A stretch of DNA of 64,000 nt from Thermoanaerobaculia bacterium (GTDB lineage Bacteria; Acidobacteriota; Thermoanaerobaculia; Multivoradales; Multivoraceae). Position 1 is the first letter of the stretch; each line of letters begins with the position of its first letter. The translations under genes were made by a program, and so were the position numbers. Shown here in pieces: positions 28,387-33,743 of the stretch. The stretch covers positions 6,144,001 to 6,208,000 of the forward strand of contig OY761158.1 of NCBI GenBank assembly GCA_963664405.1, given 5' to 3'. The notes beneath the pieces are model-generated. The model searched no databases. It was not told the origin of the DNA and saw nothing but the letters and a program-made list of their open reading frames with translations.

Positions 28387-30110
28387 CTACTCGTCGGGCT
28401 GATACCAGATCGGCGACGTATAGGCCCGCTCCTGCAGTGTCGGCGCGAGATCTCCCCGCGGCGGCAGTCCGGCGGCAGCGGTGTCGTAGGTCGACCAGCG
28501 TGGGGTCGGAATCTCGATCACGCGCAGGTAATAGAAGGCCGGCACGTCGGCATCGAAATCAGGATCGGTCCACACCGCCCGCAGGGTCGCGGCGCCAATA
28601 TCGTTGGTGTACGTCGCTTTCCATACGTCGACCGTGTTGCCGACGGGCGGCGCCTTGTCGGTGGGGCCGACTTCGCGGCCGTCCGACAGCGTCAGATCGT
28701 AGATGCGCTCGAAGGTCTCGCCGTCGTCGGTCCAGCCCTTGATCAACTGGATACGGTCGAGATTTGCGCCCTTCGGATCTTTCGCCGCCCATACGACGAA
28801 GTGTGGGGGGGCGTGCGCCGACCCTCGCAGGACGCCGCCCATGGGGACGCCACCGGCATAGCCTGCCCTGACCCAGTCATTCTTATCGAGGATGTCGCTG
28901 TCATAGTGCCAGCCGCCAAAAAAACGCACCGTGATGCGGGGCCCCGTAGTGGCGTAGGTCTCGCGACGGCGTATTCCCGCGAAGAGCTCTTCGCGGGTAT
29001 TCTCCGGCGCCCAGATGGCGGTCAAGCCTGCCGCGCTGCGCCCTTGAAAAGGCATCCGGCTCCAGGTGCTCGTGGTCAGGCGCTCTTCGAGAGTGCCGTC
29101 GACCGTGTCGCCGGACATGCTGCTCATGTTGTTTTCTTCTACCGCCGAGGTGCCGGAGTGGAAGTCCGTCGCTCCCGCAAAGCCGAACTGGAAGGGGTTG
29201 TAGCCTTCCTCTGCCTGTAGCCGGACCCCGTTCCTCAGGGCTTCACGGACGTAACTGCCCGGCACTTTGCCGATTCTGCCTTCGGCGACCAGGAGCTCGG
29301 GAAAGAGCTCGAAGTCGGCAAACTCGTCATTCGGCGACATCACCGGATGGGTCTCGGAGGTACCCTTTGCCTGCGTGATCTCGACCACGGGCTCGTTGCG
29401 CATGCGCTGCACGGCGTAGCTCGCGGTCAGCGGCTCGCCGGCGAAATCGACCAGCGCGAACATCCGCCCGTCGCTCACATTCATATTGTGTGGGATCGCG
29501 ACGGCGTCGACGTTGTGCGCGCGCTGGGTATCGAGGTAATCCCAGAGGTCTTCGGGGTTATCCGAGTCTTCTCCGGAAAACGGCATTGGCAGGCCTTTAG
29601 TGTCTTCGAAGATCACACAGCGGTGAAGGTTGCCGCGGTCGATAGCAACGGTCCATTCGTAAGCGGCGAAAGTGGTGAACTCGCCCGGCGCGTTGTGCCG
29701 ATCGGCGGACGCGACGATCTTGCGCCAGACCTCACGGCCGACCTCTGGGTGGTCGAAGAGCTCCATGTTCTCTCCGGTGCGGCGGGCATTGCTCCAGTCA
29801 TAGAGGCCCTGCAGTCGGGTCTCCCGGTCGCGCGAGTTGGCTCGTTTGACGATGGGGTGGTCGCGATCAGGATGATTGGGGTCGGTGAAGGTCTGGAGGA
29901 CGCCGAGATTTTCGGCGTGGTCGGTCACCGCCATGAAATCGAAAGGCGTTCCGAGTTGAATGCGGGTGCCCCCGATGTGCGCCACCTCTTCCCCCTTGGC
30001 ATAGCGGTAGGCATCGTCGGGCGTCCGCTCCGTACCGAAGGCGAAGGCGTCATTCGAATAGCGGGTGTGGAGGTGGAGATCGCCGAAGTAGACGTTCTCG
30101 GCCGGCTCAG
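28387..30110 (-). pseudogene. DUF3604 metallohydrolase, main body, cut from its signal peptide by a transposon
   Basis: NVYFGDLHLHTRYSNDA, AYEWT, NLHRCV, KGTSETHP, ERAYTSPIWY; joins in frame with 33669-33743 once the element and one CTCAG are removed. Confidence 0.9.
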
Positions 30111-30143
30111 TGAGAGTGATCACGGTAATCGATGGCGGGCTGA

Positions 30144-30491
30144 TCACAGTAAATGATGGTCTGGGTCTTGGCTGCTGTCGCGGATGAGAGTTTCAAGGTA
30201 CCGGAGGTAGCCGTTATCGAGGGGTCTATCGCGAATCTCTCGGATGACGGGGAGGAAGTAGTGGAGACTCTGGATGGGGGTTGTGGTGTGTGCCTCGTTG
30301 CATCTCCTGGCGGCGACGAGTAGTAAGGCAGCGTTGATGGTGTCGAGGGTAACGCCGTTTCGATAGAGATGTACGGCGAGGCGGCGATCGGCGTTTCTGA
30401 CTCGTCCGGTGGTTTGGGGATGTCGTCGATAGAGCTCGAGGACGCTCTGGAGGTGCCGTCGTTGTTGCTGGGCGGATGGGGAGTCAGGCAC
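30144..30491 (-). CDS. Transposon-encoded hypothetical protein (ORF4)
   Basis: 115 aa, overlaps the ATPase stop, ends inside the terminal repeat region; PIQSLHYFLPVIRE motif. Confidence 0.7.
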   Translation of the reverse strand: MPDSPSAQQQRRHLQSVLELYRRHPQTTGRVRNADRRLAVHLYRNGVTLDTINAALLLVAARRCNEAHTTTPIQSLHYFLPVIREIRDRPLDNGYLRYLETLIRDSSQDPDHHLL

Positions 30492-31329
30492 GGGCTTTCC
30501 TGGGAGAGCGCTGGGAGGTAGGTGGCGAGAAGACCTCGAGGTAGAGCTTCTGATCGATGTTGGGTAGCTCTTCTTTGGCGGCCATGGCGAGGAGCTCGTT
30601 GGCCATGTGTGCGAGTACTCTGAGGTTTCTGGCGGCGTGCTCGGCGAGAGTGGTGATGACCTCGTGGTCGAGGAGACTGGGGTTTCCGGCTTGTGTCAGG
30701 GAGTGCTGGAGCCATTCGGCCAACGTCTCTGGGGGCAGGTAGTCGAGGAGGAGGAGGCGTACGCGGATGCGGCTGGCGACGGGTAGGAAATCGTCTCGTC
30801 GGAAGAGCTGTGTGAGTCGGGAGTCGCCGCACAGGACGACGGTGAGGATGGAGCGTGAGTCGAAGTCCGCAGAGGCGAGGATGCGCAGTTCGGCCAGCAC
30901 GTTGGCGGCGAGCTCCTGTGCTTCGTCGATCAAGAGTACGGGTCTTTGATGGGTGGCATCGACATGGGAGAGCCAGGTCTGTCGGAGGGCTTTGAATCCG
31001 GCCCATCGGTTGTGTGGATTGAGCGGGACCCCGAAGAGCTGTCCGAGCTCACGGTAAAAGTCGGCGAGACTGCTCTGTGGCCGCGTGAGGACTCCGGTGC
31101 GCAGGTCGGGCAGGTGTTGAAGGTGGTGAGCGAGGGTGCGTAGAGCGACCGACTTGCCGGTGCCGGGATCACCGGAGATCAATGCGAAGCCACCGTCGTG
31201 GACGAGGGTCTCCAGGCGCCAGCAGAAGTGGTCGAGATGCGGGTGTCGCCACAGCGCTTCGACGGGGATGTTGGGGGTAAAGGGGTTCCATTTGAGTCCG
31301 AAGAGTGCCAGTAGTTTCTGGTTGTTCAC
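30484..31329 (-). CDS. ExeA/TnsC-like AAA+ ATPase of the transposon
   Basis: FGLKWNPF, Walker A GDPGTGKS, Walker B LLIDEAQ, ASRI; coupled to the transposase. Confidence 0.9.
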   Translation of the reverse strand: MNNQKLLALFGLKWNPFTPNIPVEALWRHPHLDHFCWRLETLVHDGGFALISGDPGTGKSVALRTLAHHLQHLPDLRTGVLTRPQSSLADFYRELGQLFGVPLNPHNRWAGFKALRQTWLSHVDATHQRPVLLIDEAQELAANVLAELRILASADFDSRSILTVVLCGDSRLTQLFRRDDFLPVASRIRVRLLLLDYLPPETLAEWLQHSLTQAGNPSLLDHEVITTLAEHAARNLRVLAHMANELLAMAAKEELPNIDQKLYLEVFSPPTSQRSPRKARA

Positions 31330-32750
31330 GGTGTCTCCTTTTTGAGGTAGGCGGGCGGGAGCCCGGTGGCGGCGTACTCCGCCATGTGTTTGCGGAGTAG
31401 GGGTGCGATGCCAGGCTCCGGGCCTGTCGGCTCGTCGGTGCTCTGGGGTTGGATCGGGCGGCGGATGCCGGAAGCGTTTCTTGCCTTGTCGATGGGGTAG
31501 AGGCGCTCGAGTGGGACGTCGGAGCTTTCGTCGACCATGAAGACGGAGCTTTTCTCCCAGCTCTGGTATCGCACCGAGATCCGGTTGAGATGATGGAAAC
31601 GAGAGGGGATCTCGAAACGGGTGCCGTCAAGACTGATGGTGCCGTCGCTTTGGCGCTGGGTGCGCTTTCGAGCGGCGGTGAAGGCGAAGCGCAGCTCGTC
31701 CAGGCTGGGGCAGATCCGAGAGACGGAGGGACCCTCGAGAAAGCGGTCGAGCGGCGTCTGGCCGGTCTCGGAATGGACGCTGCGGTGATACTCCATCTCC
31801 ACCCAAGCCAGCGTCGCCTCATTGAGCAATGCCAGATTGAGATCCGCGTGTCCTTCGAGCATGGCGAGGAGGCGGGATTCGACTTGAGAAAAGAAGTTTT
31901 CTTGTTTCCCGTTTTGATAGGGGCTCCGGGGCAATGTGGTGCGATGGACGACGGAGAGGCGTAGGAGCCCCTCGGTGGTCTCGTCGGCGATCATGGCGCT
32001 GCCGTTATCGGTGAGCAGTGAGCGGCACAGTCCGCGTTTGATGAAGGCTTGGATCAGAGCGTGGATCAGACACTCGGCGGTCTCGTGCAGATACCACTGC
32101 AGATGGCAGGTGAGCCGGGAGTGATCGTCGAGAATCGCCAGCAGCATCGGTACTTCCCAGGTCCCTGCGGAGCTCGGGATCTTGCGCGAGCCGTGGTGGA
32201 AGTCGAGGTGCCAGAGCCCGTTGACGTACTCGGCTTCGTAGCTGCGCTTCTCGCGCGCAGGGGCACCGGAGGCAGTGCTGCGATCCTTTCCCTTCGTGCG
32301 TCGTTGTTTGGGCCAACCGTGCGCGATCATGAAGCGGCGCAGGGTGGAGTAGGAAGGCACCTTCCCTGGCTCCGGTCGCTCTTTTAGCACCACGTCCAGA
32401 TTGTCCCAATGGAGCTGGTAGCTCCACGTCGGGTGGGCCTTGTATTGCGTGTGGATCAGCTCGGCGATCCGGGTTGGGATGGCGCGCGCTTGGCCGCTGT
32501 CGCTTCTCGATCGGCGTTGTAGCGCCCCGATCGGATCGCGACCGGCCAGGGCCGTGTAGTACCAACGCTCAATCGTCGAGCGGGCAAAGTACACCGCCTT
32601 CTCCGTGATCGGATGGCGCCAGGCCTTCTGGGAGAGTCGAGACAATTCCACCTGCAGATGTCCCGGTGCGGGAGGCGCAGCCAACAGCTCACCCACCACA
32701 CTGAAGCGAAACTGCGCCCAGCGTTGTTGCGTCGAGGCTCGATGGCTCAT
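31326..32750 (-). CDS. DDE transposase (rve core with Mu-transposase-like C-terminal domain)
   Basis: STIERW HTH, WHLDFH, LLTDNGS, NGKQENFF, YHRSVHSETGQTP, DGTISLDGTRFEIP. Confidence 0.92.
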   Translation of the reverse strand: MSHRASTQQRWAQFRFSVVGELLAAPPAPGHLQVELSRLSQKAWRHPITEKAVYFARSTIERWYYTALAGRDPIGALQRRSRSDSGQARAIPTRIAELIHTQYKAHPTWSYQLHWDNLDVVLKERPEPGKVPSYSTLRRFMIAHGWPKQRRTKGKDRSTASGAPAREKRSYEAEYVNGLWHLDFHHGSRKIPSSAGTWEVPMLLAILDDHSRLTCHLQWYLHETAECLIHALIQAFIKRGLCRSLLTDNGSAMIADETTEGLLRLSVVHRTTLPRSPYQNGKQENFFSQVESRLLAMLEGHADLNLALLNEATLAWVEMEYHRSVHSETGQTPLDRFLEGPSVSRICPSLDELRFAFTAARKRTQRQSDGTISLDGTRFEIPSRFHHLNRISVRYQSWEKSSVFMVDESSDVPLERLYPIDKARNASGIRRPIQPQSTDEPTGPEPGIAPLLRKHMAEYAATGLPPAYLKKETP

Positions 32751-32856
32751 CTCCCTCTCCTGGGCGCCGATTCCTTCAATCGGCGGCGAGAACAGAGACC
32801 TTAAGGCCCGCTTCTCGGCGAGTCGAGACGCATCTTCTGCGGGTTTCCGGCGACCC

Positions 32857-33423
32857 TCACACAGCGAGCACAGAGGGCCCGACCAATAGGGCGCGAATCA
32901 CCGCCAGCACCCTCTCGCCTGCCGGCGACAATTGACGAAAGACTAGGAGCAGAGAGCCCGGCAAGTCTTGCCGCTGGATCGGCTCGGCATGAAAGCCTTG
33001 AAAGCGAGTCATGACCGGGCTGAGACCGAAGTCCTCTCGCCACCATCTCTGCCATCGGCGCACCGTACGTGCGCTCACCTGAAACAATTCCTGTAGACGA
33101 TGCAGCCGCTCTCCCTTGGCCCCTTCCCGCAGCACTGGGACCAGAAGTACCAACACGCTGAAGTACACCTTCCGGCCCAGAAAACGAAAGGACGCAGGCG
33201 TCTGACGACGACGGCACCCCTCCACCGAGCAGCAATAGCTCAGCCGCAACGAGGTCCTTCTGCGCAGCTCCTCGGGCCCTCCGCGAGGCTTACGTGGATA
33301 GTGAGCCTGGTGCAAACGCCCACCGCATTCGCAGCCTAGGGCGCGAGTCTTCTCCGCTAGATCCTCGTCGAGTCGCAACAGTAGATCGTAGAAACTGGCA
33401 TCCTGAAGCAGGGTCTGGTACAA
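32857..33423 (-). CDS. Transposon-encoded Cys-rich/HTH hypothetical protein (ORF1)
   Basis: TTG start after AAAGGAGA; CECGG..H..HYPRKPRG, SYCC...GCRRR.TP.S.RFLGRKVY, VSARTVRRWQRWW. Confidence 0.8.
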   Translation of the reverse strand: MYQTLLQDASFYDLLLRLDEDLAEKTRALGCECGGRLHQAHYPRKPRGGPEELRRRTSLRLSYCCSVEGCRRRQTPASFRFLGRKVYFSVLVLLVPVLREGAKGERLHRLQELFQVSARTVRRWQRWWREDFGLSPVMTRFQGFHAEPIQRQDLPGSLLLVFRQLSPAGERVLAVIRALLVGPSVLAV

Positions 33424-33668
33424 GAGGGCTGTCTCCTTTCGGCCTTTCGTTTTTAAATTCAACGAAAGAAGACACGCCCTCCGAGGGGACGTCAACCCCC
33501 GGAGGGCACCTCACTCCCCCCCCACAACAACGGCGCGCCCGGTGGCCGCGGATGATGCCGGCTCTTTTGCCCGCTTTGATCACGCTATCCGAGGGACCAG
33601 TACGCTCTTCCCTCGACTACCGTGACTAGAACAGAGGCGAATCCCATCAACTACCCTGATCACTCTCA

Positions 33669-33743
33669 CTCAGCGCCAGATGCCGGCCCGCTCGTGAGGA
33701 CCCATGCAATCCCAATAAGGCCTGTAGCCACACGGCCGCACAT
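33669..33743 (-). pseudogene. Signal-peptide 5' end of the interrupted DUF3604 gene
   Basis: ATG 33743 after a G-rich RBS: MCGRVATGLIGIAWVLTSGPASGAE, continuing as PAENVYFGDLH across the insertion. Confidence 0.85.

Follow-up and report, generated by a model that had tools for sequence, protein, structure and literature searches.

A 64,000-nucleotide stretch of the genome of a Thermoanaerobaculia bacterium (contig OY761158.1, positions 6,144,001 to 6,208,000; this whole stretch is called the window) contains an intact, recently active transposon. It carries four open reading frames (ORFs), which encode a cysteine-rich protein with a helix-turn-helix (HTH) domain (ORF1), a DDE transposase, an ExeA-like AAA+ ATPase and a small helical protein (ORF4). 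It is probable that this transposon is a member of the Tn6049 family and that it moves by the mechanism proposed below, in which the transposase and the ATPase would act together on ends that each carry several binding sites.

Boundaries, end sites and gene order

The transposon spans positions 30111..33668 (3,558 bp), has all its genes on the minus strand and ends in TG..CA termini (TGAGAG...CTCTCA). It is flanked by CTCAG at 30106..30110 and at 33669..33673, read from the sequence as a target-site duplication; the left copy corresponds to a single CTCAG in the empty-site contig of public run X8 described below. A first-pass annotation, made from the letters of the window, had described an intact transposon with TG..CA termini and a 5-bp CTCAG duplication, and this was borne out by the reading of the ends, by five genomic copies and by the X8 empty site. 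It had placed the element at 30106..33673, a span that includes both CTCAG copies and is therefore longer than the element proper.

The terminal inverted repeat at the ORF4-side end (30111..30135, plus strand) comprises TGAGAG and an outer 18-bp site at 30118-30135, and an inner 18-bp site follows at 30142..30159 (plus strand), 24 bp from the outer one when measured from start to start. At the ORF1-side end the terminal inverted repeat (33644..33668, minus strand) comprises the outer 18-bp site at 33644-33661 and CTCTCA. An inner inverted site (33610..33627, minus strand) is found 34 bp from the outer site, and a degenerate site in direct orientation (33578..33595, plus strand) is its palindromic partner. 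In a repeat scan, the arms of the terminal inverted repeat were 31 nt long and 87% complementary. The motif GATCACGGTAATCGATGG matched the window three times with up to 3 mismatches (30118, 30142 and, inverted, 33644), where 0.04 matches are expected by chance; three matches were reached in 0 of 100 shuffles. The sites at 33610-33627 and 33578-33595, which lie upstream of ORF1, have 4 mismatches each to the best 18-bp site, and as sequences they look weaker than the other end sites but real. The repeated end motif of the first-pass annotation was thus confirmed, with three sites at 3 or fewer mismatches and the two further named sites at 4.

ORF4 ends within the inner ORF4-side site, which covers its final codons and its stop. 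The C-terminal 'DHHLL/DHQLP' of ORF4 is conserved at the DNA level because its codons are the inner end site CCATCATTTACTGTGATCA, and it was rejected as a peptide motif of ORF4. Between the ORF1-side end sites and the start of ORF1, a terminator-like scan identified a G+C-rich hairpin of 14 pairs (33474..33509, minus strand), possibly a barrier to read-through transcription from outside or a regulator of ORF1. A sigma-70 promoter scan of the element gave 0 sites.

The gene order is as described in the first-pass annotation: Cys-rich/HTH protein, DDE transposase, ExeA-like ATPase and 115-amino-acid protein, the last three genes overlapping, by 4 and 8 bases. ORF4 (30144..30491, minus strand) encodes a five-helix protein, and its start overlaps the stop of the ATPase gene by 8 bases; it is probably translationally coupled to the ATPase.

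Copies of the element and the disrupted host gene

The genome, a single contig of 6.78 Mb, contains five full copies with 99-100% identity and the same exact boundaries. Differences between the copies are limited to 4-27 positions, and each copy retains its four ORFs open. Direct repeats flank the copies, of 5 bp in four cases and of 6 bp in one. The target sequences of the five insertions are unrelated and show no evident common site.

An empty site was found in a Logan contig of run X8, where position 30105 is joined to 33669; 3,563 bases are skipped, and the joint has 5 ambiguous bases. In runs X1 and X2 the element forms a separate contig of 3,555 bp with a depth of 35 and 24.5, respectively, while the depth of the flanks is ∼3-10 in X1 and ∼5 in X2 (one end bin is higher). 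A depth above that of the flanks is what a repeated element should show.

The insertion interrupts a gene for a DUF3604 protein on the minus strand, between a signal-peptide-like start and the domain. The domain part occupies 28387..30110 (Pfam DUF3604, E 6.6e-214) and the 5' fragment 33669..33743, which corresponds to ∼25 codons when counted from the ATG at 33743, the putative start. In-silico excision of the element together with one CTCAG resulted in a single DUF3604 frame of 643 amino acids. When the empty site was sought in the relatives G164, G186 and G196, only paralogous DUF3604 genes with 65-90% DNA identity were obtained; several paralogues in this range occur in the genome and its relatives.

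Apparent remnants of older copies were also observed, namely a 113-bp left-end fragment at 395820-395932 (96% identity) and a 166-bp internal fragment at 2641592-2641757 (92%). In the closely related genome G164, a copy of the transposon (L011:5565-9183, also L114 and L126) is split by an IS21-type element nested near codon 38 of the transposase.

Non-autonomous relatives in the genome

Fifteen non-autonomous elements were identified in the genome, the first 51 bases of which are 86-88% like the left end of the transposon. Eight have a short form of 477/478 bp that is dense with copies of the motif (e.g., 1966600-1967076). The other seven have a long form of 1,849 bp (e.g., 2516723-2518571), in which an IS256-like insertion sequence with a Mutator-type transposase of 399 amino acids has been added to the short form. 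This insertion is at the identical internal position in all seven, so that the composite seems to have moved as a unit. Exact direct repeats were found around 9 of the 15 elements, with lengths of 5 bp (five elements), 6 bp (two) and 7 bp (two). No other transposase of the Tn6049 family besides the five copies was found in the genome; therefore, these copies are the only candidate source of transposase, though the ends differ.

At 3800330-3802657 one short and one long element are arranged head to tail; their ends abut with only one C in between (CTCTCA c TGAGAG), and no clean direct repeat surrounds the pair. IS21 forms reactive tandem junctions, which this arrangement recalls.

Transposase and ATPase

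The transposase (31326..32750, minus strand, 474 amino acids) contains an HTH_32 domain at residues 59-140 and an rve core at 176-277 (Pfam rve, E 2.5e-9). D183, D248 and E284 are its candidate catalytic residues, and the protein of Cupriavidus metallidurans CH34 shares the DDE-context motifs. Its best NCBIfam model is IS481 (NF033577), with 123.4 bits against a cut-off of 224, which is not reached. The IS21 model NF033546 gave 43.7 bits against a cut-off of 160, and the IS3 cut-off is likewise far from reached. In RefSeq, the homologous Tn6049 transposase is labeled IS481 family.

The ATPase (30484..31329, minus strand, 281 amino acids) is best matched by Pfam AAA_22 (E 1.9e-22). Among the 15 Pfam families that matched at E≤0.1, neither IstB_IS21 nor TniB was present. 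The Walker A (G53-K59) and Walker B (D135-E136) residues are invariant in 32 relatives. Its nearest solved sequence is MuB (8xvb, residues 47-171), a weak match at E 0.033, and MuB is the only transposition protein among its solved-structure sequence matches. In the four ORFs of the element no TnsA, resolvase or Mu-type transposase domain was detected with Pfam and NCBIfam. The several end sites, the duplication of ∼5 bp and the pairing of a transposase with an AAA+ protein, on which the first-pass comparison with IS21, Mu and Tn7 was built, all held.

An 'exeA-int' pair beside mcr-9 is mentioned in the available part of an account of Tn6230-related enterobacterial plasmid regions (PMC13049778), and it may be another pair of an ExeA-like ATPase and an integrase-fold protein.

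The element is a distant relative of Tn6049

A scan of species-representative genomes resulted in 343 ORF1 loci, which span Acidobacteriota, Planctomycetota, Pseudomonadota, Myxococcota, Chloroflexota, Gemmatimonadota, Rokubacteria and others; 80 loci were kept for synteny counts. A transposase follows ORF1 in 72 of the 76 loci that could be assessed, four of the 80 having no room to judge; in the remaining four, room is present and the transposase is absent. An ATPase follows the full transposase in 56 of 57 assessable loci. When the search was started from the transposase, 6 of 201 Acidobacteriota genomes were positive, and both complete foreign copies carry ORF1 upstream. The relatives have sizes of ∼3.5-4.8 kb and are built on three syntenic genes, which encode the ORF1 protein (zinc ribbon and HTH, specific to the family), the IS481-related transposase and the ATPase.

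Plasmid records with ORF1 homologues are mostly from Cupriavidus (18 of 23), and the P. aeruginosa plasmid pHS87a was among the matches. On plasmid pMOL28 of C. metallidurans CH34 the genes of Tn6049 are annotated as 'transposase' (181 amino acids), 'IS481 family transposase', 'AAA family ATPase' and a hypothetical protein of 71 amino acids. Gene order is the same as in the window, and the identities, over nearly the full length, are 42% for ORF1, 48% for the transposase and 55% for the ATPase. ORF4 has no BLAST similarity to the 71-amino-acid ORF.

The ends point in the same direction. The end sites of Tn6049 are GAGCACGGTAATTGATGG and GAGCACGAGATTCGATGG, compared with GATCACGGTAATCGATGG here, and the 18-bp motif is common to many relatives. 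The 24-bp doublet of sites at the distal end was also found in L019, L022, L030, L014, L020, L034 and Tn6049 (L091), and the 34-bp spacing at the ORF1-side end in L030, L038 and L043. The pMOL28 copy of Tn6049 in L091 is 3,517 bp as read here and is flanked by 5-bp TATGG repeats. Tn6049 has been described as a 3.5-kb element with 12 copies in C. metallidurans CH34, all with an ATPase gene provisionally called gspA, in the available part of PMC2864759; the copy on pHS87a was given 12-bp inverted repeats and a 4-bp direct repeat in the available part of PMC4739549. From the shared gene order, the identities, the 18-bp motif and the spacings it is concluded that the element is a distant member of the Tn6049 family. 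Since the fourth gene varies across the family, possession of the same fourth gene was not treated as defining membership.

The first-pass annotation had proposed a poorly described family. This description is fair, as the available accounts of Tn6049 (including the accessible parts of PMC2864759 and PMC4739549) report occurrence and not mechanism. A 'new family' it is not, since the layout is that of Tn6049, which has been named in print (PMC2864759). A literature search, whose coverage did not extend to the original description of Tn6049, gave no paper on the mechanism of the family or on a third IS21 gene.

ORF1 is a conserved core protein

ORF1 (32857..33423, minus strand, 188 amino acids) starts with TTG behind the ribosome-binding site AAAGGAGA; the ORF listing extends it to 33495. 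Its N-terminal cysteine cluster (C31, C33, H38, C64, C65 and C70) is accompanied by an RKPRGGP motif, and the HTH is located at residues ∼99-135. There are 742 homologues of about 188-193 amino acids, all unnamed. In an alignment of 81 sequences the cysteines are invariant, H38 is nearly invariant and RKPRGGP is conserved; across these members Pfam assigned HTH_23 in 55 of 81 and HTH_Tnp_4 in 32. The model of ORF1, with a predicted local distance difference test score (pLDDT) of 74, shows a long helix, a small beta-ribbon with the cysteines and then helices including the HTH. When the profiles of ORF1 and ORF4 were compared with the sequences of solved structures, nothing below E 0.2 was obtained. 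A relation of ORF1 to the Cys-rich protein of the IS21-type elements described below was rejected (hhalign probability 0.02).

A variable fourth-gene slot behind the ATPase

The fourth slot was counted in the 45 relatives with a full ATPase gene. It holds an AAA_25 protein of ∼317 amino acids in 28, ORF4 in 12, another protein in one (L061) and nothing recognisable in 4. ORF1 is conserved with the transposase-ATPase pair as the first-pass reading of the two small genes supposed, whereas ORF4 is present in 12 of 45 and absent in Tn6049. The AAA_25 protein matches the RSF1010 helicase RepA (1g8y, E 2.7e-9) and the L061 protein matches the RSF1010 primase RepB' (3h25, E 8.8e-11). Six helicase-type elements have an added gene with a DnaG-type zinc ribbon, which in L034 also has a Toprim domain. 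Such replication-type genes are found after the ATPase, for instance, at L057:3325-4700, L034:3089-5026 and L061:3120-3899, in elements of ∼4.7 kb. 'Unknown' fourth genes of 270-350 amino acids were rejected as alternative reading frames over the RepA-like helicase gene.

In a quick TnpA tree the ORF4-type elements form a clade of 19 rows (13 carry ORF4, and the contigs of the other 6 are too short for a decision) with a Shimodaira-Hasegawa-like approximate likelihood ratio test value of 99, nested among the helicase-type elements. The ORF4 family comprises 1,577 representative clusters at E≤0.001, mostly of stand-alone proteins of 100-150 amino acids, and the model of ORF4 (pLDDT 88.7) is a five-helix bundle. 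Pfam RepB_primase_C was weakly matched by 9 of 20 ORF4 members, with a best E of 0.0016 that is below the cut-off. A relation between the ORF4 profile and the RepB'-like protein of L061 was not supported (probability 0.11).

Homologues of ORF4 also occur outside the Tn6049 family. The genome contains ∼24 paralogues with 41% identity, none inside the window. Each of those examined is the last gene of an IS21-type element of 3,391 bp, for example at 6498220-6501610 (L140), where a Cys-rich protein (131 amino acids), IstA (523), IstB (266) and the ORF4 homologue (121) are encoded. For the Cys-rich protein 232 homologues were found, all unnamed. The ORF4 homologue again comes after IstB in other Acidobacteriota genomes, with a tally of 11 of 201 that includes the unpublished genome G049. 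Metagenomes were searched via the ORF4 motif, and 76 of the 80 loci had room to judge the upstream gene. It was IstB in 67, an ExeA-like ATPase in 6 and neither in 3. The order IstA-IstB-ORF4 is also that of other Acidobacteriota and of metagenome contigs. The first-pass statement that IS21 has only two genes does not hold here, given the four-gene IS21-type element in this genome and the 67 IS21-type loci among 76.

It is concluded that ORF4 is a mobile accessory module behind AAA+ transposition regulators. The module is borrowed from, or shared with, IS21-type elements and takes the slot of the RepA-like helicase in this clade. What ORF4 replaces, together with the weak resemblances, suggests a link to replication. 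The most likely partners of ORF4 would be the AAA+ regulator or, at the transposition intermediate, proteins of replication or repair.

A broader proposal can be put forward tentatively, although it is itself unlikely. Among AAA+-assisted DDE transposons, the Tn6049 superfamily may form a lineage of its own, the movement of which depends on a dedicated initiation of DNA synthesis. For this, most members would bring parts of a primosome: a RepB'-type primase, or a hexameric helicase like RepA, in some cases together with a zinc-ribbon/Toprim primase of the DnaG type. ORF4 would instead be an adaptor from the AAA+ target complex to the helicase-loading or restart machinery of the host. If this is true, two transposase families have in common an accessory step that has not been described, and ORF4 is its marker.

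Proposed mechanism and alternative explanations

In the proposed mechanism, the transposase would bind the 18-bp sites, two at the ORF4-side end 24 bp apart, and one terminal and two degenerate ones at the ORF1-side end. It would pair the ends, cut at the TG/CA termini and join them to the target with a 5-bp stagger. By analogy with IstB, MuB and TnsC, the ATPase in its ATP state would coat and prepare the target DNA and switch the transposase on. ORF1 would most likely be a sequence-specific DNA-binding partner or regulator that acts at the element's ORF1-side end or promoter, the region of the palindromic site pair.

Several observations weigh against this picture. The repeats of 5, 6 or 7 bp at the non-autonomous elements indicate that the stagger is perhaps not strictly 5 bp. 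The transposase is below the NCBIfam cut-offs of IS481, IS3 and IS21, and as the MuB match is weak, the analogy with IstB, MuB and TnsC rests on domain class and gene order. No RNA run is listed as containing the element. Foldseek comparison of the ORF1 and ORF4 models with the PDB gave nothing at E≤0.001. In VIA fold searches only the HTH part of ORF1 matched, to generic HTH proteins with Z up to 5.4 (a common range), and ORF4 matched AAA+ lid domains with Z up to 7.3, DnaD-like replication domains at 6.0 and TnsC at 5.0, values that are common for helical bundles. The TnpA tree is a quick one with a midpoint root only. An apparent fusion of ATPase and ORF4 in L023, L032 and L079, suggested by a stop-to-stop hmmsearch, was rejected: in the ORF listings a stop closes the ATPase frame, and ORF4 begins shortly behind it in a different frame.

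A somewhat unlikely alternative is that transposase and ATPase suffice and that ORF1, ORF4 or both are regulators only, acting in repression, copy-number control or immunity. The HTH of ORF1 resembles those of small regulators of transposons and phages, namely TnpE (2rn7, Z 5.1), Mu C (9l0x, Z 5.1) and Mu Mor (1rr7, Z 4.3). Upstream of ORF1 there are a hairpin and two degenerate sites that form a palindrome, and the free exchange of the fourth gene within the family suggests that it is dispensable for the core reaction. However, almost every assessable relative, in many phyla, has ORF1 alongside the transposase, and the cysteines of ORF1 are invariant. This conservation is stricter than expected of a simple repressor, though still compatible with one. 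Moreover, ORF4 has a fixed position immediately behind the AAA+ gene in two families whose transposases are unrelated.

It is improbable that the element follows a Tn7-like logic, in which ORF1, as a target selector of the TniQ/TnsD type, would bring the ATPase to particular sites and ORF4 would be an adaptor. ORF1 does unite a cysteine cluster with an HTH, as TniQ-type proteins likewise do, and the element pairs a transposase with an AAA+ protein and shows several end sites and a duplication of 5 bp. However, TniQ was not matched by ORF1 in Pfam at E≤0.1, nor is it among the 25 families listed for the 81 members (12 more are unlisted). The fold searches of the ORF1 model list generic HTH domains and no TniQ among their matches, which by structure is not decisive. 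The five insertions are at unrelated sequences, a TnsA gene is absent, and the transposase is IS481-like and not TnsB-like. The analogy of ORF1 with TniQ made in the first-pass annotation thus found no support from Pfam, fold search or insertion sites, and ORF1 is probably not a target selector. With no TniQ support and dispersed insertion sites, the favored view is that ORF1 acts on its own element, as a DNA-binding partner or as a regulator.

Equally doubtful is a plain insertion sequence of the IS21 or IS481 family with passenger genes: RefSeq labels the Tn6049 transposase as IS481, IS481 is the best NCBIfam model of the transposase here, and ORF4 is otherwise associated with IS21, but the transposase stays below both family cut-offs (IS481 123 vs 224, IS21 44 vs 160), the ATPase has no IstB_IS21 match among its 15 listed Pfam families, and, while IS481 elements have a single gene, there are four genes here, of which ORF1 and the ATPase gene are conserved core genes and not passengers.

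Significance

Mu, Tn7 with its CRISPR-guided relatives, and IS21 are the best models for target choice coupled to catalysis, and they are sources of genome-engineering tools. The barely studied Tn6049 family is shown here to be widespread and to have a strictly conserved third core protein with a zinc ribbon and an HTH, and its variable slot usually holds replication proteins. The presence of the ORF4 family behind the AAA+ genes of both Tn6049- and IS21-type elements suggests a shared accessory step beyond the published two-protein model of IS21. With five near-identical copies, non-autonomous derivatives and an empty site, the genome is a good natural test system. No description was seen, in a literature coverage that is incomplete, of the conserved first gene, the slot for replication proteins, the link of ORF4 to a four-gene IS21 subgroup or the non-autonomous derivatives; these seem to be unreported.

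Comparison with known systems

The fourth genes of the relatives connect the family to the IncQ plasmid RSF1010, as those of most relatives match RepA and that of L061 matches RepB'. In contrast, the element in the window has neither a helicase nor a primase catalytic domain, and no solved chain resembles the ORF4 profile.

With Mu (MuA/MuB) and Tn7/Tn5053 (TnsB/TniA, TnsC/TniB and TniQ) the element shares TG..CA termini, ends with several transposase sites each, a duplication of 5 bp and a partner protein of the AAA+ class. It is far smaller than these, its insertion sites are dispersed, and TnsA, TniQ, resolvase or Mu-type transposase domains were not detected in it.

The likeness to IS21 lies in a DDE transposase gene followed by an overlapping AAA+ ATPase gene and in the several end sites, and the four-gene IS21 subgroup also opens with a Cys-rich protein and ends with an ORF4 homologue after IstB. 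The solved IS21 complex has a 5-bp insertion site, and a role of the AAA+ regulator is described for IS21 (PMC11208146, available part). The ATPase there is IstB, whereas it is AAA_22/ExeA-like here, and the Cys-rich protein there is not homologous to ORF1.

Tn6049 resembles the element in size, gene order, end motif with the 24-bp doublet, 5-bp repeat and multiple copies in the host. The two differ in the fourth gene, which in Tn6049 encodes 71 amino acids unrelated to the 115-amino-acid ORF4, in the terminal hexamer (TGTGCA in Tn6049, TGAGAG here) and in the host, which is betaproteobacterial for Tn6049 and Acidobacteriota-like here. The element would work like the transposase-plus-AAA+ systems but belongs to none of the classical ones.

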